DNA of 64,000 nucleotides, taken from assembly GCA_030749035.1 (NCBI GenBank), contig JASMKV010000301.1:4523-68522 (forward strand), written 5' to 3'. How positions within the stretch are numbered: position 1 is the first letter of the stretch; every line of letters starts with the position of its first letter. The notes under the pieces are model-generated. The model did not search any database, was not told the origin of the DNA, and saw only the letters and a list, made by a program, of their open reading frames with translations. Source of the DNA: Myxococcota bacterium. Lineage in GTDB: Bacteria > Myxococcota > XYA12-FULL-58-9 > JASMKV01. This document shows, piece by piece, positions 29,099 to 49,120 of the stretch. A program made the position numbers and the translations under genes.

Positions 29099-30679
29099 AT
29101 GGCGTTTGAACTTCGCTTACAGCAAAAAATGTCACAGCAGCTGGTGATGACGCCTCAGCTGCAACAAGCGATCAAGCTTCTGCAACTCTCACACTTGGAG
29201 CTGGCCGATGTGCTTCGTCAAGAAATGGAAGAAAACCCCATTCTTGAAGAGCAAGGCCATGAGTCCCAACCCGATGAAGCGCCCCGGAGCGATCCTGAAA
29301 ATGACGGACTGATGGGTTTGGACACTGCCCCTAAAGCTCCGGAAGGCAGCACCGAACCCCCCAGCGAAGGTTCGGCCGATAGCGCCGCAGAAAACTTAGC
29401 CAACACCGCGACTTCAGAAATTGCCAATGATCTGACCAAAAGTGTGAGTGATAATCCTTCAGAAAATGCGCCCGAGCCATCTGCCAAAGAACTTGAAAAT
29501 GACATCGATTGGGAAGCATACCTCGAATCGCAAAGCTACTCGTTGCCAGCAAGTGCGGGCGGCACAAACTTTGATGACATGCCTGCTTTTGACGCCACCT
29601 TAAGTGCCCCTGGCTCACTTATTGAACATATGCGCTGGCAAGTGCAAATGGCTGATTTTAGCGAAAAGGAACTGCCCATAACCATGCGCATCATTGAGGA
29701 ACTCAACGATGATGGCTATGTGCCTGAAGATATCTGTGACATTGTTGCTGAAGATCTTGAAATCTCTCCTGAAGATGTCGAAGTGCTCTTATTAAGATTA
29801 CAAAGTTTTGAACCACTCGGCGTTGCCGCACGTAACCTCAGAGAATCACTTCTTATACAATTGGCGGAAACGCCGTATAATCAATCTCTGGTGCGAGATA
29901 TCATCGACCGTTTTTTACCACAAATGGAGCGCCGCAATTATCAAGCCGTGGCCAAAGAACTTAAGGTTCCTCTGGCCGAAATCGGCGAGGCACTCAAAGT
30001 CATTGCGCATCTCGAGCCCCGCCCTGGACGTAGCCATAACGAAAAGCAGGCTGAGTATATTGCGCCTGACATCTACGTGAAAAGAGTCGGCGACGAGTAT
30101 GTGATTTTACAAAATGATGACGGTTTACCGAAATTAAGAATTTCAAATTACTACCGCAAAGCCTTAGAGGGTTCTGGTGGTGAAACAAAAGAGTTTATTC
30201 AGGATAAAATGCGTTCAGCCGCATGGTTGATCCGTTCTATCCACATGCGCCAACGCACCATTTATCGGGTCATGGAAAGCATTCTCAAATTTCAACAAGA
30301 CTTTTTTGAAAAAGGCGTTGAACATCTAAAGCCGCTCGTCCTTAAAGATGTGGCCGAAGATATTGAAATGCATGAATCGACCATTTCGCGGGTGACCACC
30401 AATAAATACGTGCATACCCCCCAAGGCATTTTTGAGCTCAAGTATTTTTTCAACTCCTCAATCTCTTCAAGTGGGGGGGGAGATGATGTTGCCTCGGAGT
30501 CGGTCCGCAACCACATTAAAAATCTCGTGGCCACCGAAGATCCTAAAAAACCCTTATCAGATCAGAAGTTAGTACAACTCCTGGCTGAAAAAGACATCAA
30601 GGTTGCACGCCGAACTGTCGCTAAGTATCGAGAAATGTTAAATATTCAATCATCATCACGGCGTAAAAAAGTCTTTTAA
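29099..30679 (+). CDS. rpoN: RNA polymerase sigma-54 factor
   Basis: The N-terminus MAFELRLQQKMSQQLVMTPQLQQAIKLLQL is followed by an acidic linker and the C-terminal RpoN box (…ARRTVAKYRE…). Confidence 0.95.
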   Translation: MAFELRLQQKMSQQLVMTPQLQQAIKLLQLSHLELADVLRQEMEENPILEEQGHESQPDEAPRSDPENDGLMGLDTAPKAPEGSTEPPSEGSADSAAENLANTATSEIANDLTKSVSDNPSENAPEPSAKELENDIDWEAYLESQSYSLPASAGGTNFDDMPAFDATLSAPGSLIEHMRWQVQMADFSEKELPITMRIIEELNDDGYVPEDICDIVAEDLEISPEDVEVLLLRLQSFEPLGVAARNLRESLLIQLAETPYNQSLVRDIIDRFLPQMERRNYQAVAKELKVPLAEIGEALKVIAHLEPRPGRSHNEKQAEYIAPDIYVKRVGDEYVILQNDDGLPKLRISNYYRKALEGSGGETKEFIQDKMRSAAWLIRSIHMRQRTIYRVMESILKFQQDFFEKGVEHLKPLVLKDVAEDIEMHESTISRVTTNKYVHTPQGIFELKYFFNSSISSSGGGDDVASESVRNHIKNLVATEDPKKPLSDQKLVQLLAEKDIKVARRTVAKYREMLNIQSSSRRKKVF

Positions 30680-38851: not shown

Positions 38852-40672
38852 CTATTCCTTTTTACGTGGACGCTTGAGTCCATAGCTCTCCAGGCGATTA
38901 ATGAGTGTTCTTCTGGACACACCGAGTTCTGCTGCGGCTTTTGTCTGATTTCCTCCGCAACGCTCCAAGGCCTCCATGATGATTTTTTGTTGTTCATCAT
39001 CATCTTTTTTTCGTAATTGATCTGCTGGCCTCGAAGAACCTCCTCCTAGAGCAGAAAACTGCTGCGTCGGCTCATCGTCAAGAAGAGGTATATGGTTTGA
39101 GACTCCGGAAAATTGATTTTGTGCTGAAAGCAGTGAGTTGGTGCTCAATTTTTCAAGCGGTAAATGCTCAGCTGCAATCGTTCCCGAGCCACACAAGAGA
39201 ACTGCGCGGTCCATAATATTACGTAATTCCCTAATATTGCCCGGCCAGTGATAAGCCTTGAGGCGCTCCAAGGCCTCTCCCGATAATACGGGTATCCGGC
39301 TGTTATGATCACGTTCGCAAACCATCTTAATAAAAAGATGCGCAAGATTTTTCACCTCGCTAATACGCTCGCGTAAAGGCGGAATAATCACAGAAATACC
39401 ATTGAGGCGAAAATAAAGATCTTGTCGAAAGTTTCCCTCCGTAATTTCATCTTCTAAATTACGGTTTGTCGCCGCAATAAAACGCACATCAATAGATTTT
39501 TCCTGCATGCCCCCAACGCGCTGCACTTTGCGATCTTCAAGCACCCGTAAAAGTTTTACCTGCACACTCATGGGCAACTCACCGACCTCATCGAGAAAGA
39601 CACTTCCGCCATCGGCCGACTCTAAAAGTCCTGGCTTCGAAGCCACAGCACCCGTAAATGCTCCTTTTTCATGTCCAAAAAGTTCACTTTCAAGAAGCTG
39701 TTCAGACAATGCGGCACAGTTAAGCTTAAGGTAGGGCTTTGCGCAGCGCGGTGACTTTTCATGAATTTGTGCCGCAAAGACTTCTTTTCCCACACCGGTT
39801 TCACCAAGCAGCAAAACACTAATATTGGATCGCGCAATACGCTCAATCAATCGATGTAGGTTTTGCATCACCGGATCTTCGACAACAATCGCATCCCCAA
39901 CCTGATCGTCAAGCACATCACCCGACAAATCAGCACAAGCTTTGGCCATTAACTCACCGGCACTCTTTTCTTGTGGATAGAGCGCATAACCGCTGGTCAC
40001 CGAATAGTCATTTGCCCGTAAAACTTCTTCCGTTTGATGCACAAAGGCCTGAATATTTTCAGCAACAGCATTCAGTCGTAAAATTTCATACTCCCCCGGA
40101 GGGCCATATGTTCCAACAACATCAACAGAAGATAAAAGCTCTTCAAAGCAACTCGGCGCTGAGTCAAGCTCTTCTCCCTTCACACGCAACCGGATTAAAG
40201 CAAACGCAGACTGCTCTTGCGCGGCGCGCAAACACTCCTCTTCCAACCGTATTTCGAAATAGTCGTGCCCACATAAACGCCTTGGACGCGTTGTCTTTCG
40301 TGTCTGCTGAATCAACAATGTATTTGTACCGATTTCAATAACATCGCCCAGCTCTAAAGGTACAATTGCCTCCGCCGAAAGCTGCTCATCATTGACACGA
40401 ACCCCATTAACACTTCCACAATCCTGAATCTGTAAGGGTGGACCCATGTGCAGTATTGCATGCTTTCTTGATACCGCAGGATCATCCAAGCGCACATCCA
40501 CACCTGATGCTGCGCGGCCTATACTGAGCTGCCCTATAGATGGCAAAGGATAAGTCACAGCCCCTTGCTCTCCAACCACTGTTAACCTTAAACGGCTGGT
40601 GCGCGCGTCGGGGACTTCTATAATTTGCTGCGTAGAGAAATTATCTGGCGTATCAAAATCGTTCTTCGACAT
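38852..40672 (-). CDS. Sigma-54-dependent transcriptional activator (bacterial enhancer-binding protein) with an N-terminal FHA domain and a C-terminal Fis-type HTH
   Basis: The FHA region reads (…LSIGRAASGVDVRLDDPAVSRKHAIL…GSVNGVRVN…). The AAA+ core has GETGVGKE, the GAFTGA motif ESELFGHEKGAFTGA and the R-finger region. A C-terminal HTH is present. Confidence 0.85.
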   Translation of the reverse strand: MSKNDFDTPDNFSTQQIIEVPDARTSRLRLTVVGEQGAVTYPLPSIGQLSIGRAASGVDVRLDDPAVSRKHAILHMGPPLQIQDCGSVNGVRVNDEQLSAEAIVPLELGDVIEIGTNTLLIQQTRKTTRPRRLCGHDYFEIRLEEECLRAAQEQSAFALIRLRVKGEELDSAPSCFEELLSSVDVVGTYGPPGEYEILRLNAVAENIQAFVHQTEEVLRANDYSVTSGYALYPQEKSAGELMAKACADLSGDVLDDQVGDAIVVEDPVMQNLHRLIERIARSNISVLLLGETGVGKEVFAAQIHEKSPRCAKPYLKLNCAALSEQLLESELFGHEKGAFTGAVASKPGLLESADGGSVFLDEVGELPMSVQVKLLRVLEDRKVQRVGGMQEKSIDVRFIAATNRNLEDEITEGNFRQDLYFRLNGISVIIPPLRERISEVKNLAHLFIKMVCERDHNSRIPVLSGEALERLKAYHWPGNIRELRNIMDRAVLLCGSGTIAAEHLPLEKLSTNSLLSAQNQFSGVSNHIPLLDDEPTQQFSALGGGSSRPADQLRKKDDDEQQKIIMEALERCGGNQTKAAAELGVSRRTLINRLESYGLKRPRKKE

Positions 40673-40733: not shown

Positions 40734-41474
40734 GTGCAATCCTGTGCTCTTATGTCGAAAAGGTCGACAGTATCACGAATGAAATTATCTATTATCATAC
40801 CTTGCTACAATGAAGAGCATACCTTGAAAAAGGCCGTAAGCAGAATTTTCCCTGTGGACATTGGAGAGGTCACGAAAGAGATCATTATTATTGATGACGG
40901 CTCTACAGATCGCTCTGTCGACATGATTCATGAGCTTGAAAATGAGCACCCTGAAATTATTGGACTTGTACATGAAATTAACCAGGGCAAAGGGGCTGCT
41001 CTAAAAACAGGTCTTCAGGCTGCTTCTGGTGATATTGTTCTTATTCAGGATGCTGATATGGAATACTCGCCTGCCGACTACCCAAAACTTCTCGAACCTA
41101 TTTTGGACAACAGAGCTGATGTCGTCTATGGCTCTCGCTTTAAAGGCGGAGAACCAGGGCGCGTCCTTTTTTTCTGGCACAGTGCTGGAAACAAATTTCT
41201 GACCCTAACATCCAATATGATGACAGACTTAAACCTCACAGATATGGAAACGGGCTATAAAGTATTTAAACGTGAAGTCATCGAAAAAATCGAAATAGAA
41301 GAAAAACGTTTTGGCGTCGAACCCGAAATGACGGCAAAAATTGCCAAACTCGATCCACGGCCACGTATTTATGAGGTTGGTATATCTTACGCGGGAAGAA
41401 CCTATGCAGAAGGTAAGAAGATTGGCTGGAAAGATGGATTCCGAGCCCTATATTGCATTATGAAATATAAATAG
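40734..41474 (+). CDS. Family-2 glycosyltransferase (polyprenyl-phosphate sugar transferase-like). The likely start is the MKLSIIIP Met near 40779
   Basis: SIIIPCYNEE, IIIDDGSTDRS, and the DxD-like LIQDADMEY. Confidence 0.7.
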   Translation: MQSCALMSKRSTVSRMKLSIIIPCYNEEHTLKKAVSRIFPVDIGEVTKEIIIIDDGSTDRSVDMIHELENEHPEIIGLVHEINQGKGAALKTGLQAASGDIVLIQDADMEYSPADYPKLLEPILDNRADVVYGSRFKGGEPGRVLFFWHSAGNKFLTLTSNMMTDLNLTDMETGYKVFKREVIEKIEIEEKRFGVEPEMTAKIAKLDPRPRIYEVGISYAGRTYAEGKKIGWKDGFRALYCIMKYK

Positions 41475-41496
41475 GTTGCGTAAAAAAGAAGGCTTG

Positions 41497-42225
41497 CTAC
41501 CCAGATTCCCCAAGTAAATGGGCGATGATCCCTGTGGCCAACGCGCGCGCAATCGTTTCCTGATAATCTTTATTCGCCAATTTTTTGCATTCTTCACTGT
41601 GACTCAAAAAGCCTATTTCCACGAGTATCGCCGGCATACGAGAACGCCATAAAACAGCAAAAGGCCCCTCTAAAACACCTTTATCTGGTGTATCCATATT
41701 TTCTGCCAAATGGCTTTGTACGCGATGGGCTAAACGTTGACTCTCAACATAAGCACCATTCAAAGCTAAATCCTGAACAATAAAATCGATATTGGCCTGC
41801 GGCTCAGTATCTAAAATAATGCCCTCATTTTCACGTTCAGCCAAACGATGCACACGCTTGTTGGCTACCCTGCGCGACAAAATAAAAGTTTCCACACCCT
41901 GTACATTTTTCAATGGCGAAGAGTTGGCGTGTATAGAAACGAAAGCTTTCGCCCCAAGTCGGTTTGCCATCTGAGCACGTTGCGCCAAATCCACATTACG
42001 ATCTTCAAAACGCGTCACCACACTTTCAACTAAATTTGAGCGTTCAATAATATGGTGAACTCGCTTGGCAATGTGCAGAACCAGATCTTTTTCAACCAAC
42101 CCACACACACCACGCGCCCCTGATTTCTCACCCCCATGGCCCGGATCAATAACCACAATCGGTTTTGCTTCAGCAAGCACCAAAGTCAAAGAGAAGAAGA
42201 GCCAATTCATCCTATGCCTATACAC
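41497..42225 (-). CDS. N-acetylmuramoyl-L-alanine amidase (Amidase_3 / AmiC family), secreted
   Basis: A signal peptide, then VVIDPGHGGEKSGARG, …FVSIHANS… and …VETFILS…. Confidence 0.8.
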   Translation of the reverse strand: MYRHRMNWLFFSLTLVLAEAKPIVVIDPGHGGEKSGARGVCGLVEKDLVLHIAKRVHHIIERSNLVESVVTRFEDRNVDLAQRAQMANRLGAKAFVSIHANSSPLKNVQGVETFILSRRVANKRVHRLAERENEGIILDTEPQANIDFIVQDLALNGAYVESQRLAHRVQSHLAENMDTPDKGVLEGPFAVLWRSRMPAILVEIGFLSHSEECKKLANKDYQETIARALATGIIAHLLGESG

Positions 42226-42352
42226 ACACCAACCTACATTCGGAAGTCTAAAAATTATTATTTACCGAGCGTTTGCACCGCGCCCCTTCCTTGGTTATAT
42301 CTTTGAACAAATAGCGTAATGCTTACGTCTGAGTAGATGGAGGATAAATCTC

Positions 42353-44050
42353 ATGTTTTTGAACAAAACCACGTGGCCCGTTTTTTTGATCGCACTTTTT
42401 TTGGTCTCACCAACCTGGGCGCAGGATGAGGTTGCCAGCACCGATGAAAGTGCTGCTGCAGAAGATGTCAACGAAACCGTCAATGCCGACGCAACGGTGA
42501 ACGAAACGCAAGAGACCTCCGAAACGACTGAAGGAGCTCAAGCTGCAGAAGGTGAAGAGGCTGCGGAAGCTGCAGAAGCTGCAGAAGGCGCAGAAGGCGC
42601 AGCAACAGAGGAAGAGATCGAAGCACAGGCAGAAGAGATGAATAAATTTCACAAAGGTGACTTAGGCTTAGCTGGAAGCCCTGAGCTGGAAAACCCCAAT
42701 AACTCTATTTTCATCGGTATGGGTTATTACAATATTGGTGGTCTTCTTGATGGTAAGCACTACGCAGAGGTAACCCCCAGCCTTAATTTTCATTTTCCTT
42801 TTACCGAATCGAAGAAATTAACACTCAGGGCCGAAATACCACTGCGCATCCTTGCCCTCAATCGCACCAGTGATGGCGAAGCACCCGGATCGATACGCGC
42901 AGAAGATTATGATGAAACTGGCGATTATCTTAAAGTCATCAAGCAAATACGACTGGGCAGAAAAGAAGACAAACTCTTTGTGAATGTGGGACGACTCAAT
43001 GGTGTGACTGTCGGACACGGTACTGTGATGCGCCGCTACAACGCAAATTTGGATCCAGATCGCACACGTGTTGGTTTTCAGCTTGATGCGTATAACGACT
43101 ATGGTGGATTTGAAACATTTATGGCCGACCTTGCGCTGCAGTCGCGTGTGATTGGTGCCTTAGGTTTTATCAAACCCATGGCCCTGTTTTCAGACAATCC
43201 AATCGCGCGCTCCCTCTCTTTAGGCCTCCATTATACAGCTGATTTAAATGCACCAAAGACCCTCACCACAGCTGAAAACTCTCTAAGTGTCGCGACGGAT
43301 GATTACGGTTATCCACTCTTTAGTGAAACTCAAGTTGGCATTATTGGTGCGGACTTTGAAGTCAAACCCATACGTCTGGGGAATGCTTTTGACCTCAAAG
43401 TTTATGGTGATTTAAGCCTCATCGCGAATGCCGGTAACGGAATGACCGGTGGTCTTCTCATGCGCTCCAATTTAGGCTCTCTACCTTATCTGCATGCTTT
43501 TCGGGTCCGCATGGAGGGAAGAACTTATTCCAACAACTATCTCCCTCAGTATTTTGATGGCCTCTATGAAATCCAAAAATTTAGTTTTGATCGTGGCTCA
43601 CAAAGTGGTGGTCAAAAAACAAAATACGAGACGGTTGTCGAAGCTGAAAATACTGGGCGCCATTTTAGTCTCTACAGTGAAGCGTTTTACGCACTCGTGG
43701 ACCGACTGGTTGTTGGAGGCGGCATTGAAAGCTTACTCGATGAAGGGCTCTATAACCTCATGCTGCATCTTGAAGTGCCCGCATCAAGCGTCATACAACT
43801 CTATTTCACCTATTATAAAAACTTCTACAGTGACTTAGCAAAATCATTTGCCCGCGCAGAAGGCGAAAGCTTTAGCTTTGAGTCAGATACGGTGCTCTAC
43901 GCAAACATGCGCGTCATGGTGCTGCCTATTCTCTTCATGAATGCGGGCTTAAAACAAACCTATCAATGGGACGAAAATTATGGCGCTTCGGGTGGGTATA
44001 ACCCCACCATGGATTTTGTCATCAACGCCCAACTTGGACTTGAGTTCTAA
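42353..44050 (+). CDS. Putative outer-membrane β-barrel protein with a signal peptide and an N-terminal acidic Ala/Glu low-complexity repeat
   Basis: The signal peptide reads MFLNKTTWPVFLIALFLVSPTWAQD. An (AEGAE/EAAEAAE) acidic tract follows. The body has alternating-hydrophobic β-strands, and the C-terminus …NAQLGLEF ends in Phe. Confidence 0.5.
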   Translation: MFLNKTTWPVFLIALFLVSPTWAQDEVASTDESAAAEDVNETVNADATVNETQETSETTEGAQAAEGEEAAEAAEAAEGAEGAATEEEIEAQAEEMNKFHKGDLGLAGSPELENPNNSIFIGMGYYNIGGLLDGKHYAEVTPSLNFHFPFTESKKLTLRAEIPLRILALNRTSDGEAPGSIRAEDYDETGDYLKVIKQIRLGRKEDKLFVNVGRLNGVTVGHGTVMRRYNANLDPDRTRVGFQLDAYNDYGGFETFMADLALQSRVIGALGFIKPMALFSDNPIARSLSLGLHYTADLNAPKTLTTAENSLSVATDDYGYPLFSETQVGIIGADFEVKPIRLGNAFDLKVYGDLSLIANAGNGMTGGLLMRSNLGSLPYLHAFRVRMEGRTYSNNYLPQYFDGLYEIQKFSFDRGSQSGGQKTKYETVVEAENTGRHFSLYSEAFYALVDRLVVGGGIESLLDEGLYNLMLHLEVPASSVIQLYFTYYKNFYSDLAKSFARAEGESFSFESDTVLYANMRVMVLPILFMNAGLKQTYQWDENYGASGGYNPTMDFVINAQLGLEF

Positions 44051-44136
44051 GCGTTTTTTATCTGGAAGCTTTGTCATGCCTTATAAAACAGCGCGGCAGT
44101 CCGTAAAACGCTCGGCGTATTTATCTGGATGACTTT

Positions 44137-45876
44137 TTAGATTAAATGCTTGCTTACCGCAAGAATGTTGCCACAGAGGTGACAAATAAATGGTGGCCAA
44201 ATACTTTTGTATCTTAAGTTCAAGAAGGCTAAAGGCAGACCGGACAAAATGATCACCATCGAAACCCAATAATACTGACTCCAAAAAGGACTCGCCGCAA
44301 ATGGCCAATAACTTAAGTGATAAAATCCCCAGAGAATAGAGCTAAAAAGAATAATCGGAATTGATTTATTGATTTGGGTCTGGAGCAATCGAGTCAGAAA
44401 AACTCGAAAGAAAAATTCATCCACCAATACCCCCAAAGGCATCAACCAAACGCTCGCATCAAAAACCTCAAATAAACCATGCTGAGGCCACATCAAACCT
44501 GCCCCAGACCCAATAAGGGCCGCCAAAAAACATCCAATAAAAGAAAAGCGCCACCCCACCCCCTTTAAAATACTTGAGAGGCCTGCGTCTTCCAATAAAT
44601 ATAGGCCAATAAGGCCCGCAACTAAAAGTATACCTCGACGCAAAGAACAAAAAGGAATATTGAAAAGATAAAGGTATTCACCTTGAGCATAACGTGGACC
44701 CAAGAAAATTAAACTTCCTACGGCCACAAAGACCATGCTCCAAACCAACGCCAGCCGCCCCAGATGAAATGACTCTCCAACTTCAACATCCGGTTCTTGC
44801 TTTTCTTCAATCGTTTCTTTTTCAGCTTTGTCGGCCTGTGCGCTCGCTTTAGAAATTTCGCTGTCAAATTGCTTTTCTTCTTCGGTTTCAGGATGCATTG
44901 CGGCTTCAAGTGAAGCGGATATAGGCAAAGTCGATGGTTCATCGACCAATGTCACTAATCCTTGGCGAATCAATAAATAAAAGGTTTGCAGCACCTGATC
45001 ATAAACATGCGCCATGCCCAAATCAAATTCACTTAAGATCTGACCAGAGCGCATCCCCGATGACATCAACGCAAGGATGTCAATTTCTATACCATTGAGC
45101 TGTTCTACGACCGCTTCAAGCTCAGGTTCAATGCGATAATACTTTTTATTCACAATTAACCGTGCTCTTAAATGCTCGAAGAGCTGATCTTCATTTGCCC
45201 GCTGCCAAATTGCCCCTGCCCGCATCACATCGAGAAATGTTCCATCAATCACAGGGCTCACTTTATTTGGGCGGTCATCCTCGAAAAATGTAATCTTCCC
45301 TTGAGCCCATGAAAAAGCCTCGGCAACCCGATCGAGCGACTGTTGGCGCAAGGCTTTAATAAGCTCATGTGTCTTCATGACGCCTTCGCGCAAGATCACC
45401 CAGCCTAAAAAGAGTTTTTCATCACGCGCCATTTTCTGTAACGCGTGAACACGTTGCTCTTCGATGTAACCCTCACGAACAAGAAACCGCGTGAGCAGTT
45501 CCTCGGGGATATTCGAATTGGCTGTATGCGGAACACCGTGTGCAATCGCAACCACTTTTGTTTTTGTGCCATGCTTCAGCACTAAAAAACCGCTGGCACT
45601 TTCCATATAAAGACGCAAGAGGACTTCTTCAATAGACGACTCCTCTAATGTCGCCGCTAAATAGGCCTTCTGCCGTTCAAGAATATCTGTTTTGGCATTG
45701 AGCGCTAAAGAGCGACTCATGCGAATCAATTGCAAAACAGCGGCGCCACGAACATGCTCAGATAAATCCGCTGGCTTTAAGGTTCCTTTTTGTAGGCCAT
45801 CTAAAAGTGCAAAATCATTCAGCTCATCGAGATAAGCCAACGGATTTTCTTCATCCGGATTATAATTTATCGGCAT
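44137..45876 (-). CDS. Fusion protein: a ~330-aa N-terminal soluble domain of unknown function, an acidic linker, and a C-terminal CPBP-family (CAAX protease / Abi) intramembrane metalloprotease domain
   Basis: The C-terminal TM region carries the CPBP motifs EE-like …VDEFFFRVFL…, …WGFYHLSYWP… and …FICHLCGNI… The N-terminal 330 aa have no hits by eye. Confidence 0.55.
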   Translation of the reverse strand: MPINYNPDEENPLAYLDELNDFALLDGLQKGTLKPADLSEHVRGAAVLQLIRMSRSLALNAKTDILERQKAYLAATLEESSIEEVLLRLYMESASGFLVLKHGTKTKVVAIAHGVPHTANSNIPEELLTRFLVREGYIEEQRVHALQKMARDEKLFLGWVILREGVMKTHELIKALRQQSLDRVAEAFSWAQGKITFFEDDRPNKVSPVIDGTFLDVMRAGAIWQRANEDQLFEHLRARLIVNKKYYRIEPELEAVVEQLNGIEIDILALMSSGMRSGQILSEFDLGMAHVYDQVLQTFYLLIRQGLVTLVDEPSTLPISASLEAAMHPETEEEKQFDSEISKASAQADKAEKETIEEKQEPDVEVGESFHLGRLALVWSMVFVAVGSLIFLGPRYAQGEYLYLFNIPFCSLRRGILLVAGLIGLYLLEDAGLSSILKGVGWRFSFIGCFLAALIGSGAGLMWPQHGLFEVFDASVWLMPLGVLVDEFFFRVFLTRLLQTQINKSIPIILFSSILWGFYHLSYWPFAASPFWSQYYWVSMVIILSGLPLAFLNLRYKSIWPPFICHLCGNILAVSKHLI

Positions 45877-46015
45877 GGTATCCTATGCTTATGCCAAAAC
45901 CCCGCTACAAACAATGTTTTGACCTCGATAAAATCCGATAACTACCTGAAATACATGTGGAACTGGCTTGAAAAAGAGCTTTTAACCTGGACCTGGTACG
46001 CGTTACACTAGAACC

Positions 46016-46720
46016 ATGAGTACACGCATAGAAAGTGGCATCTCCACCCAGCTCAACCCCAACACCACAAACTTGAGTTCCGCTGGACAAAATCAGCAAA
46101 TACAAAGTGTGGGTCAACAAGTCCAACAGGTCCTTTTTGGCAAACCCAAACCCGTTATTCTCGATCCAGCAAAATTCCCACAAGTTGCAGAGCAATTAAA
46201 ACTTTTGCGGAAATATAAAAAAAAGATAGCCAATATGGCAGACGATGATGAGCATGATTATGAGCTGGCCTTAACCCAAAGCGCTATTGCCATGATTGAT
46301 GCGCAGGGAACCATCTATATGGGCGTCGAGTTTTTAATGGCCAATAAAGAAAACCCCGAAATTATTCTTGGAGCCCTTGCGCATGAAATAGGCCATCAAC
46401 CCAAACGCTGGAAAGAATACCAACAACAACACCTGCTCACAAAAGAAGAGATGCAACTCATCTGCCGCCACGAAGAAACACGTGCGGATCTTTTTGCCGG
46501 CTCCGCCTTGGCTGAACTCGGCTTATCTTGCGAGCCCATGATTCAATTCTTAAAAGATATAGAGGAAGGACCCCATCCCGAATACTTTCCTGCACAGACA
46601 CGGGGTGAAGTGATTCGCGAAGCACATCAAAGTCGAAATTATCGAGCAAAAAATCGCCGTAAAATATTTCCAAACTTTGATCGAATGACTTCCGTCAAAG
46701 GGCATCTTGGCGAGTTCTAG
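46016..46720 (+). CDS. Small HExxH protein resembling the ImmA/IrrE (DUF955, M78-like) metallopeptidase fold, with a Gln/Ser/Thr-rich N-terminus
   Basis: …ILGALAHEIGHQ… (HExxH) is followed ~30 aa later by …EETRADLFAGSAL… (the E…A[ND]xFA..LL pattern of DUF955). There is no signal peptide. Confidence 0.45.
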   Translation: MSTRIESGISTQLNPNTTNLSSAGQNQQIQSVGQQVQQVLFGKPKPVILDPAKFPQVAEQLKLLRKYKKKIANMADDDEHDYELALTQSAIAMIDAQGTIYMGVEFLMANKENPEIILGALAHEIGHQPKRWKEYQQQHLLTKEEMQLICRHEETRADLFAGSALAELGLSCEPMIQFLKDIEEGPHPEYFPAQTRGEVIREAHQSRNYRAKNRRKIFPNFDRMTSVKGHLGEF

Positions 46721-47687
46721 ATAGGCTGTTCGTCCATAGCTTTTCAATCACAATGGCGAATAATATCACAAAAACGTAGGTCATGACGCCCAATGTATCA
46801 TGCGCAATATTCCAATAATCGATATTGCTGGAAAACCAGTAGGCGCAATAACAACTCAATATGATGCGTAAGGTGTTACCAATAAACCCACCCAGGAAAA
46901 CCAAGATCAAAAATCGAAGGCTTCTGTCTATTCGCCTCGCATATAACACCAACGACAGCACAAGGGACAAAGTTTGTAGGGCCACAAATGTCTGCACACC
47001 CGCACAAGCCGATGTCACAGTGAGTCTGAACCCCTCACCTTCAATGGTCTGCAGGGCCTCTGGACGAATCAGCGTGTTGAGCCCTGCTTTGCTGACCACA
47101 AATTCTGAGAGATAGGCGGTCACTTCGCATAACTTTAAATCAACCAACGGCCCCAAAATATAATCCCAAGGGCAGACGAAGAAGCCCAAGAGAGAGGGCA
47201 CCAGCCAAAAAGAGAGTTCAAAACACCAAAACAAAGCGCGCACTAAAAAAGCAAACGACAATGCCCACAACACTGGATGCACAAACATTGCCCCCAAAGC
47301 AAAGAGCCCGCTTAAGCCCAGCCAAAACCAATAGTTGGAGTTCAAATCAGGCTTTTTTTCGCTATCTCGCTGAGCATCAATAAAAAAGAGCAGCCCCGCC
47401 AAAAGTGCGCAAAGGGAGCGTAAAACCGCCTGCGACTCAATCCAATAAAGGCGCTCCAAATAAAAGAAGAAAGGTATGTGCAGCCCAACCCCTAAAACGA
47501 GCCCCAATGCTTTCTGCTTATCTATTACTTTCAACAGCTTAACACCCAAAGAGCAGCCTAATCTTTCGCCACTAAAAGCACAATCTCTTCTTGACACAAA
47601 GACAATCCAAGAGGCATATGTGCACGTATTGACAGGAGAAAATGATGAGCGCTGCACAAAATATCCCTTTAGCACAACAGGAATCAA
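46695..47687 (-). CDS. Exosortase/archaeosortase-family polytopic membrane protein (putative transpeptidase)
   Basis: About 8 TM helices. A Cys-containing motif …[13 protein letters not shown]… (compare exosortase ACSG) is followed by an Arg and a …GNTLRI… (Asn-x-x-Arg) motif, consistent with the exosortase catalytic residues. Confidence 0.5.
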
Positions 47688-47689
47688 CC

Positions 47690-49120
47690 ATGCATACGGA
47701 CTTTAAAGTTAAAGATCTTAGCTTGGCCGAATGGGGCCGAAAAGAAATCAAATTGGCCGAAATCGAAATGCCCGGCCTGATGGCACTTCGACAGGAATAT
47801 ACGGCAGAAAAACCTCTAAGTGGTGCACGTATTACCGGCTCATTACATATGACCATTCAGACTGCCGTTCTTATCGAAACCCTTGTCGAACTCGGCGCCA
47901 AGGTTCGCTGGGCCTCTTGTAATATTTTTAGCACCCAGGACCATGCTGCTGCTGCGGTTGCCGTTGGACCGAACGGTACTGTAGAAGCACCCAATGGTGT
48001 TCCTGTTTTTGCCTGGAAAGGTGAAACCCTGGATGAATATTGGTGGTGCACTGAGCAAGCGCTGACTTGGCCAGGTGAACTTCCGAATATGATACTCGAC
48101 GATGGTGGCGATGCAACCATGATGGTCATTGAAGGCGCCAAATTCGAGCAGGCCGGCGCTGTTCCAACACCTAAAGACAATGATCCTGACGATTGGATCT
48201 CGCTCTTAAGTGCGCTGCAAAATGCTTTTAATCAAAATCCAAACACATGGCGCCCAATGCTCAAATCGATTAAAGGCGTGACCGAAGAAACGACAACTGG
48301 CGTGCATCGCCTCTACGAAATGGCCAAAGAAGGCAGCCTGCCCTTCCCTGCCATCAACGTGAATGATTCGGTGACCAAAAGTAAATTTGACAATATTTAC
48401 GGCTGTCGCCACTCTTTGGTCGACGGTATTATGCGTGCAACAGATGTCATGCTTTCAGGCAAAACCGCACTCGTATGTGGCTATGGTGATGTCGGTAAGG
48501 GTTGTGCGCAATCTTTACGCGCCCAAGGTGCCAGAGTCGCGATCACTGAAATTGACCCGATTTGCGCGCTACAGGCCTGTATGGAGGGCTATGAGGTCGT
48601 CCAACTCGAAGATGTTCTGGCCACCACAGACATTTTCATCACGGCAACAGGAAATTACAATGTCATTAGCGCCGAACAAATGGCCAAAATGAAAAATAAC
48701 GCCATTGTTGGGAATATTGGCCATTTTGACAATGAAATTGATATGGCAGGCTTAAGTAAACTTGCAGGCATCAAGTGCGAAAACATCAAGCCTCAAGTCG
48801 ATCGCTGGGAATTCAGCGATGGGCATAGCGTGATTGTGTTGGCCGAAGGGCGCCTGCTTAATCTGGGCTGCGCCACAGGGCATCCGAGCTTTGTCATGTC
48901 CAACAGCTTTAGCAATCAAGTGATTGCACAAATAGAGCTCTTCAAACATACCGACAAATATGAGGGTGTGCAGGTTCTACCCAAGCATTTGGATGAAAAA
49001 GTGGCGCGATTACACCTGGATAAACTCAACGCAAAGCTCACCATCCTCAGTGATGAACAAGCCAACTACATTGGTATCCCTAAGAATGGACCCTATAAGC
49101 CCAATCACTATCGATACTAG
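47690..49120 (+). CDS. ahcY: Adenosylhomocysteinase. The ORF is open from 47642, but the start at MHTDFKVKD is preferred
   Basis: …[17 protein letters not shown]… is a conserved N-terminus. The NAD-binding motif is GYGDVGKG, and …GHFDNEID… is present. Confidence 0.95.

Follow-up and report, generated by a model that had tools for sequence, protein, structure and literature searches.

A PATAN–CPBP fusion protein and its conserved amidase-containing neighbourhood in a Myxococcota bacterium

Bacterial proteins of the CPBP (CAAX-protease-like) family are abundant, and few of them have an assigned role. Those that have been studied are either true proteases, such as MroQ and MrtX, or membrane partners that steer envelope enzymes, such as SpdC, LnsB and SpbR. 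In MrtX and MmRce1, the first Glu of motif 1 and the His of motif 2 hold the catalytic water, and the His and Asn of motif 3 form the oxyanion hole (PMC11980579). Several other characterised bacterial CPBPs act non-catalytically (PMC13559823; 10.1101/2020.05.21.109470), and most staphylococcal ones act through protein-protein recognition at the membrane surface (PMC13559823). SpdC (LyrA) of Staphylococcus aureus scaffolds the peptidoglycan hydrolase SagB, and the authors of that study predict a similar scaffolding of envelope enzymes by other homologs of CAAX proteases (10.1101/2020.05.21.109470). In the same species, the Amidase_3 enzyme LytH needs ActH, a polytopic protein of an intramembrane-protease family (PMC9245657). 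Here we describe a gene that joins a cytoplasmic PATAN module to a CPBP membrane domain and lies near a cell-wall amidase gene. It was found in a stretch of 64,000 nucleotides (positions 4,523 to 68,522 of contig JASMKV010000301.1, assembly GCA_030749035.1) from a Myxococcota bacterium; this whole stretch is referred to as the window, and positions below are counted from its first letter.

The PATAN-linker-CPBP gene is complete, occupies 44137..45876 on the minus strand, starts with ATG and encodes 579 residues before its stop codon. By domain matches and hydropathy, its product is predicted to be an inner-membrane protein with a cytoplasmic PATAN module and a seven-helix CPBP domain. First comes an N-terminal helical leader (residues 1–69; 45670..45876, minus strand), which is hydrophilic and carries no signal peptide; it has no Pfam match, and its residues ~29–69 can be aligned with distant family members. 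Second, the PATAN module covers residues ~70–316 (44929..45669, minus strand) and is recognised by PF14332, with a family hidden Markov model (HMM) envelope of 70–319. Third, a low-complexity linker rich in Glu and Lys (residues 317–370; 44767..44928, minus strand) was delimited by composition, alignment and the linker lengths in the family. Last, the CPBP/Rce1-like membrane domain takes up residues 371–579 (44140..44766, minus strand) and has about seven transmembrane (TM) helices according to PF02517 and hydropathy. The first ~370 residues are hydrophilic throughout, and the first hydrophobic helix is found at ~373–393. The N-terminal module would lie in the cytoplasm, since it has no signal peptide, PATAN proteins are cytoplasmic and the distribution of Lys and Arg in the loops points the same way. 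A PDB search with the single sequence of the fusion protein gave no match.

An earlier note on this DNA had described the product as a CPBP protease fused to a large soluble N-terminal domain, and this description holds. The 579-residue open reading frame (ORF) has no internal stop on inspection, and both PF14332 and PF02517 exceed their curated cut-offs on it. The motif strings quoted there are all present, within DEFFFR at residues 486–491, WGFYH at 516–520 and HLCGN at 566–570, and so is the Glu/Lys-rich linker before the CPBP helices (11 Glu and 5 Lys in residues 331–385). The possibility that the N-terminal region is a separate gene was raised as well. A metagenomic ortholog (P0001, locus L001) is 92% identical, with equal length and architecture and without a single indel. 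The ratio of nonsynonymous to synonymous substitution rates (dN/dS, Nei-Gojobori) between the two genes is lowest in the linker (0.04), followed by the N-module (0.07) and the CPBP domain (0.13), and amounts to 0.10 overall; therefore both halves and their junction are under purifying selection as one gene. Two claims of the note have to be revised. Its N-terminal domain "of unknown function" is a PATAN domain, matched above the cut-off and carrying an alpha-helical insert similar to MshEN, and to call CPBP proteins membrane-only is too strong, for close CPBP relatives of 515–673 residues have other long N-terminal regions. Its proposal of a regulated or substrate-recruiting protease may hold, with the reservations that Asp takes the place of the catalytic Glu here and that several characterised bacterial CPBPs are non-catalytic.

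The fusion could also be an artefact, that is, adjacent PATAN and CPBP genes merged by a sequencing or assembly error. One relative (locus L002), whose N-part is 86% and CPBP part 69% identical to the window protein, has indeed been called as two genes, a PatA_N protein of 357 residues and a Rce1-like protein of 197 residues. In the DNA alignment, however, this split (L002:3940-4050, corresponding to ~44760-44900 of the window) comes from a 7-nucleotide deletion that shifts the frame in the A-rich linker, and the only possible start of the downstream ORF is a TTG codon inside the first TM helix. The Asn of motif 3 is also replaced by Ser at this locus. The split looks like a frameshift, due to assembly error or to incipient decay and early pseudogenisation, and not like an evolved two-gene layout; the window gene is untouched by it. 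Moreover, 24 independent clusters with only 20–31% identity to the window protein share the fusion. Together with the continuous ORF, the collinear ortholog and the purifying selection on the linker, these observations make an artefact hardly credible, and we rejected the separate-genes reading for the window.

These 24 clusters come from an exhaustive HMMER scan of 1.84 billion cluster representatives (50%-identity clusters), which returned 1251 matches. Among the best 150 of them, which were classified, 24 had both modules, 119 had PATAN only and 13 had CPBP only. The recurrence of the fusion in 24 clusters and the collinear 92% ortholog show that it is neither a chance event nor an assembly artefact. 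The pair of PF14332 and PF02517 can be seen in precomputed annotations. An NCBIfam scan gave no model that covers the family, and our literature search found no description of a PATAN-CPBP fusion or of a CPBP-amidase pairing. PATAN-CPBP is thus a small undescribed family, a multidomain CPBP with a distinctive conserved context.

The family can be divided by its first catalytic motif. One clade, here called the EE clade (P0003-P0014, P0054, L003 and L005), has an intact AEExFFR motif and a helical TPR-like linker of 140–200 residues. The window protein groups with this clade, except that a Glu/Lys linker of ~50 residues stands in place of the TPR-like segment found in most family members. A sister clade (P0015, P0020, P0070, P0075, P0088, P0135 and P0140, from loci L018 and L022-L025) has E-Q-x-F-F without the Arg as motif 1. 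In P0009, the His of motif 2 and the Asn of motif 3 are lost. The sister-clade proteins have longer N-terminal regions with faint DnaJ/TPR matches, and their genes show no amidase linkage and have Lnt and/or exosortase genes nearby; this clade may be a functionally distinct branch. The close relatives with CPBP only also have long N-terminal regions, with clear TPR matches in the one scanned (L004), so long cytoplasmic extensions are usual in this branch of CPBP proteins.

As for distribution, a scan of a genome collection gave two loci, both in metagenome-assembled genomes of Myxococcota. A metagenome scan gave 12 loci: L005 holds a full-length member, L007 a truncated remainder that covers its 3' end, together with the amidase gene, and the others match the CPBP part only. 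Word-indexed searches with the whole protein, the family alignment or the N-module yielded 2–6 usable sequences. Mesopelagic metagenomes of TARA and metagenomes from JGI and ENA are the sources of the window gene's close relatives, and the family as a whole is found mostly in marine metagenomes.

The main functional clue is the conserved neighbourhood of amidase, M48-like and exosortase genes. In the window the order is Amidase_3 (minus strand), an ImpL63-like gene (plus), PATAN-CPBP (minus), an M48-like gene (plus) and an exosortase-family gene (minus), and the flanking housekeeping genes are uvrA, rpoN, that for S-adenosylhomocysteine hydrolase, and dnaE. The context was compared over 28 related loci from ~11 lineages, mostly short metagenomic contigs of related organisms, in a matrix built with tblastn and Pfam.

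The amidase gene (41497..42225, minus strand) encodes an N-acetylmuramoyl-L-alanine amidase of the AmiA/B/C type with 242 residues (Amidase_3, E = 3e-49). The protein consists of a bare catalytic domain with a regulatory-helix insertion behind a short signal-like segment, and Pfam and inspection of the sequence found no AMIN, SPOR or LysM domain in it. It aligns end-to-end with AmiB (3NE8), AmiC (4BIN) and AmiA (8C2O), including residues ~116–160, and unregulated amidases align in two pieces around the regulatory insertion of ~45 residues. Judging from this alignment, it belongs to the regulated, auto-inhibited type. We infer its topology and export from the sequence.

Amidase orthologs with 36–49% identity lie downstream of the fusion gene and in the same direction in seven of eight EE-clade lineages (orthologs at L003, L005/L007, L019, L020, L021 and L027). 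The two genes are very close at most of these loci: the gap is -4 nucleotides in L003, -1 in L027, 20 in L020, 39 in L021, and 56 and 59 in L005 and L007, so that stop and start overlap in two loci (L003 and L027); within the clade, the fusion gene is often translationally coupled to the amidase gene. In L019 and in the window lineage, one inserted gene on the opposite strand separates them. The linkage holds in the window lineage despite the loss of Lnt, rph and citrate-synthase adjacency there. By comparison, the amidase gene is absent in all three non-EE lineages with enough flanking sequence (L017/P0009, L022 and L023-25). Amidase linkage therefore tracks motif integrity (7/8 versus 0/3 lineages; Fisher p = 0.024, uncorrected for phylogeny), which hints that catalysis matters in this clade.

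Because PATAN-CPBP is repeatedly encoded beside a cell-wall amidase, the family suggests a link between cytoplasmic signals and envelope remodelling. Our preferred reading, which we hold tentatively and short of even confidence, is that the fusion protein, under control from the cytoplasm, acts on or with the amidase as its membrane partner or as a protease. The CPBP domain would act at the interface of membrane and periplasm, in one of two ways: it might keep the amidase in place and in the right orientation, in the way that SpdC serves the glucosaminidase SagB, or it might cleave a membrane-proximal segment and so release or license the amidase. Through the PATAN module, this activity would be coupled to a partner or signal in the cytoplasm, for instance polarity or the pilus or secretion machinery, or perhaps a nucleotide. 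The soluble M48-like protease, whose gene is divergent, would probably be a cytoplasmic accessory of the module. As an outcome, the cell would control from within where or when peptidoglycan is cleaved.

The precedent of SpdC and SagB is what leads us to read the conserved gene pairing as a physical partnership. Both cases involve a polytopic protein of the CPBP fold paired with an extracytoplasmic peptidoglycan hydrolase, the pairing here being genetic only. The partner here is an Amidase_3 enzyme and not a glucosaminidase, and SpdC has no PATAN module; SpdC also works without the catalytic motifs, whereas these are conserved in the present clade. LytH offers a second precedent, an Amidase_3 enzyme that depends on ActH, a single polytopic protein in which an intracellular domain and TPRs are joined to a domain of an intramembrane-protease family (PMC9245657). 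A similar combination is found in most members of the present family, where a membrane domain of a protease family is joined to a TPR-like segment and a cytoplasmic domain, and where an Amidase_3 gene lies next to the gene. ActH is a rhomboid, however, and the present protein a CPBP, and the amidases here carry the AmiA/B/C regulatory insertion. That most staphylococcal CPBPs work by recognising other proteins at the surface of the membrane (PMC13559823) also supports the preferred reading.

Several points weigh against an action on the amidase. We infer the contact between the CPBP protein and the amidase from gene pairing and from precedent. The sample is small, with ~11 mostly metagenomic lineages, and in six loci rph-rdgB comes after the amidase gene, so that some of the synteny could reflect a gene order inherited among related genomes. 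If inheritance alone accounts for the association, the gene is simply a further multidomain CPBP without an assigned substrate. In the window, the opposite-strand gene means that fusion gene and amidase are not co-transcribed; a promoter and terminator scan of 41300-47900 gave nothing above shuffle expectation and is uninformative on operon structure. Among the amidase orthologs, signal sequences are short or hard to discern. The activating TPRs of ActH are extracellular, whereas the TPR-like linker of the present family would be cytoplasmic and is absent from the window protein. Finally, linkage to exosortase and Lnt genes spans a broader part of the family than linkage to the amidase.

A more far-reaching proposal, which we regard as improbable, is that PATAN-CPBP forms the core of a previously unrecognised amidase control. 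The cytoplasmic PATAN/MshEN-like sensor, anchored through the intramembrane CPBP domain, would license an auto-inhibited, domain-less amidase of the AmiC type from inside the cell, by cleavage or docking. This control would supplement or replace the FtsEX-EnvC/NlpD route, with the conserved soluble M48-like protease as a cytoplasmic component of the module, and it would operate in a group of mostly marine bacteria that resemble Myxococcota. Whichever form is considered, the family adds to the studied CPBPs a covalently attached cytoplasmic signalling domain and a conserved pairing with a regulated amidase of the cell-division type, and it gives a concrete, testable candidate for a system by which peptidoglycan hydrolysis is controlled from the inside out, in a group that is little studied and for the most part uncultured.

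Whether the partner of the amidase would be a protease depends on the CPBP domain itself. PF02517 matches residues 477–571 (E = 4e-13; score 49.9 bits, cut-off 22.4), and the motifs fall within helices 4, 5 and 7 of the ~seven hydrophobic helices that begin at residue 373. Motif 1 (D486-E487-F-F-F-R491; 44404..44421, minus strand) has Asp, encoded by GAT, at the position of the catalytic Glu, and thus reads D-E-x-x-x-R in place of the canonical E-E-x-x-x-R. Motif 2 (W516-G-F-Y-H520; 44317..44331, minus strand) keeps the catalytic His, and motif 3 (H566-L-C-G-N570; 44167..44181, minus strand) keeps the oxyanion-hole His and Asn, so that five of the six catalytic-motif residues are retained (E487, R491, H520, H566 and N570). 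Invariant positions in the family are Y403, R413 and R414, in a segment predicted to lie on the periplasmic side, and F489, F490, Y519 and H566. Like Rce1, MmRce1 and MrtX, the protein is a PF02517 member with an EExxxR-type motif, an xxxH motif and an HxxxN motif on successive TM helices (PMC11980579). It differs from Rce1 and MrtX in the Asp that replaces the catalytic Glu, and in having a soluble cytoplasmic module of ~370 residues instead of extra TM helices.

The Asp is found only in the window protein, P0001 and L002, while 34 of 38 aligned relatives have Glu; the remaining exceptions, P0027 and P0122, also lack the His of motif 2. The change is not a sequencing error, since all three lineage members have the GAT codon. 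It represents a natural variant in which the catalytic position of a glutamic intramembrane protease holds Asp instead of Glu, and because of it, catalysis in the window lineage is uncertain. From its motifs the protein may be a protease of altered activity or a non-catalytic partner. In the extreme case proteolysis would be abolished in this lineage, and the CPBP domain would serve purely as a membrane anchor for PATAN-mediated interactions. The replacement of the water-activating Glu in all three members fits this, as do the function of SpdC and LnsB without CPBP motifs (10.1101/2020.05.21.109470; PMC13559823) and the faster evolution of the CPBP half than of the N-module (dN/dS 0.13 versus 0.07). 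However, Asp preserves the carboxylate, the other five motif residues are kept and the domain is under purifying selection, whereas truly degenerate relatives (P0009, P0027 and P0122) lose several motif residues together. We consider a pure pseudo-protease rather unlikely.

The exosortase and Lnt genes bear on the main rival to our preferred reading, a protease for sorting or lipoprotein maturation. Under this explanation, the CPBP domain would cleave lipid-modified, membrane-anchored proteins, like Rce1 and MrtX, and would work together with the exosortase-like enzyme and Lnt, and the PATAN module would regulate it or dock it to the secretion machinery. The window gene for the exosortase-family protein (46695..47687, minus strand; PF09721, E = 1e-16) probably starts downstream of the listed TTG, because the ortholog has 292 residues. 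Only the generic TIGR04178 signature passes its cut-off, and the columns of the Cys/Arg/His triad are conserved. Homologs lie near family members at L002, L003, L005, L023-25 and L004/L006. An exosortase-like gene and/or Lnt occurs within ~3 kb in every sub-clade, namely in the window (exosortase only), L003, L005, and the amidase-less L017, L022 and L023-25, and also beside the PATAN-less TPR-CPBP relatives L004 and L006. In L022 the Lnt stop and the start of the fusion gene are separated by 2 nucleotides. As a separate observation, a short exosortase is repeatedly paired with a gene for an Lnt-type acyltransferase, usually in convergent orientation with overlapping 3' ends (L003:6959-8910, L005:4861-6866, L023:10633-12853 and L004:14020-16230).

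Known systems lend the sorting explanation further weight. MrtX cleaves lipidated MYXO-CTERM proteins (PMC11980579), and in myxosortases a conserved core is combined with N-terminal regions that differ radically (10.1101/2023.06.07.544157), a likeness to the present family, which also has a family-specific region ahead of its core. The best NCBIfam matches of the CPBP domain include MrtS, Mrt_core and MrtJ. LnsB is a CPBP-family membrane protein that works with an enzyme modifying envelope lipids and participates in lipoprotein N-acylation (PMC13559823), and the present family repeatedly lies beside Lnt. The partner of LnsB, however, is an NlpC/P60 acyltransferase in a Gram-positive organism, its CPBP motifs are dispensable, and the window has no Lnt gene. 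The Mrt scores are also far under their cut-offs (24.8 versus 130 for MrtS, 16.8 versus 100 for Mrt_core and 16.6 versus 75 for MrtJ). No ORF of at least 150 residues in the window ends in a motif, TM helix and basic tail. Furthermore, Lnt is a housekeeping gene whose adjacency may be inherited; in the window lineage it is missing from the position next to the exosortase gene, and the latter is convergent with the M48-like gene and shares no operon with the fusion gene. We judge this explanation unlikely, though it deserves more credit than the pseudo-protease. In view of the scores, membership in the myxosortases (MrtX, MrtC, MrtP, MrtJ or MrtS) was rejected. A role as Abi, anti-phage or bacteriocin-immunity CPBP was also rejected, as PADLOC gave no match for the gene or its neighbours and the neighbourhood consists of housekeeping and envelope genes.

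For an amidase partner controlled from the cytoplasm, the input would come through the PATAN module. PF14332 (DUF4388, now PatA_N, the PATAN domain; IPR025497) matches residues 76–204 with E = 1.8e-10 (41.3 bits, cut-off 25), and 13 of 13 N-modules of the family match it. Homology to other PATAN proteins extends to residue ~310–312; for example, P0019 and P0021 match residues 81–312. In cyanobacteria, PATAN is a cytoplasmic output domain for protein interaction that localises at the inner membrane and binds PilB and PilC (10.1101/2021.06.11.447907). Like the PatA-type regulators PixE, PixG and PatA, the present module carries an alpha-clip insert of two hairpins. Those regulators have a receiver domain, which is lacking here, and they are soluble, whereas in the present protein a covalent link joins PATAN to an enzyme domain in the membrane.

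The insert (residues 127–179; 45340..45498, minus strand) is alpha-helical and consists of two MshEN-like repeats of 24 residues around a spacer of five, LLTRFLVREGYIEEQRVHALQKMA / RDEKL / FLGWVILREGVMKTHELIKALRQQ. A profile of the 13 N-modules, searched against PDB sequences, matched MshE (5HTL, 3e-7), Thermus PilF (6F8L, 4e-8) and Myxococcus PilB (3JC8, 1e-5), in each case at window residues ~123–187, which coincide with the insert; the insert is therefore homologous to the MshEN module. The matches recover the relation of the alpha-clip to the N1 domain of type II secretion and type IV pilus ATPases that Makarova et al. 2006 had noted, as cited in 10.1101/2021.06.11.447907. The NCBIfam model c-di-GMP_motif, named after cyclic di-GMP (c-di-GMP), matches faintly at residues 128–179. 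A low-confidence AlphaFold2 model (8 sequences, mean pLDDT, the predicted local distance difference test, of 39) places helices at 124–134, 140–152, 157–163 and 169–188.

MshEN binds c-di-GMP mainly through hydrophobic contacts, and its motif was defined by Wang et al. (PMC5013675). We scored the insert against a relaxed form of it, two tandem 24-residue [RKPN]hGxxhhxx[GAS]hhxxxxhxxxhxx[QNKRYWST] elements at 5-residue spacing. The 24+5+24 layout of MshEN (T2SSE_N) is kept and repeat II scores 10/11, whereas repeat I scores 7/11, and the window protein has neither of the two lead Arg residues. Its total of 17/22 is matched by the best of 60 shuffled controls. Most members of the clade reach 15–17, compared with 22 for VcMshEN. 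Since the total is no better than the best shuffled sequence, c-di-GMP binding by the N-module is possible but doubtful. Many generic PATAN proteins (P0152, P0034, P0048, P0071 and P0023) have fully or nearly canonical tandem MshEN motifs in their helical insert; residues 59–111 of P0152 score 22/22, and 38 of 119 generic PATAN proteins score at least 19. Such inserts with fully canonical motifs are possible overlooked c-di-GMP receptors, and our literature search found no paper testing PATAN proteins in this respect.

The insert also suggests another rival explanation, signalling by regulated intramembrane proteolysis. In it, the PATAN/MshEN-like module would sense a partner or c-di-GMP, the CPBP domain would then cleave a membrane regulator, and the soluble M48-like protease would finish the degradation in the cytoplasm. 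The homology of the insert to a c-di-GMP receptor with an almost canonical second repeat, the strongly conserved catalytic motifs of the clade and the M48-like partner all agree with this. The gene of this partner (46016..46720, plus strand) is divergent from the fusion gene and encodes a soluble M48-like zinc metalloprotease of 234 residues with HEIGH...EETRAD; the motifs are conserved, there is no TM segment, and its Peptidase_M48 matches are only sub-threshold or marginal. Orthologs are 48–59% identical across lineages where the fusion protein is only 25–30% identical, and the divergent promoter arrangement with an upstream M48-like gene recurs in five lineages (window, L003, L005, L019 and L028, where the upstream protein has the two M48-like motifs). 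On the other hand, the first repeat is degenerate, the total motif score is that of the best shuffled control, and Asp stands in for the catalytic Glu in the window lineage; the nearby genes also include no conserved candidate substrate such as a sigma/anti-sigma pair. We see little reason to prefer the signalling explanation to control of the amidase, and rate it improbable.

Some further features of the M48-like protein and of the neighbourhood were noted. The C-terminus of the M48-like protein is a conserved GHLGEF, and a PDB search with its single sequence found no relative. The pairing of M48-like and CPBP proteins recalls the eukaryotic CAAX proteases Ste24 and Rce1, possibly by coincidence. 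Between the amidase and fusion genes lies the gene for a predicted outer-membrane protein (42353..44050, plus strand) with a partial NCBIfam match to Leptospira ImpL63, a signal peptide and a low-complexity region rich in Glu and Ala. It is found only in the window, L001 and L002, a lineage-specific insertion, and in other lineages the amidase gene follows directly downstream; it is probably outside the system. L019 has a different gene, of 218 residues, inserted at the matching spot. A gene for a sigma-54 enhancer-binding protein with an FHA domain (38852-40672, minus strand) and rpoN (29099-30679, plus strand) were found less than 15 kb from the locus. Finally, 53144-57852 on the plus strand contains two large ORFs of 882 and 638 residues without a Pfam match; the G+C content of this region is 0.515 against ~0.46, and it has several long overlapping ORFs in alternative frames.

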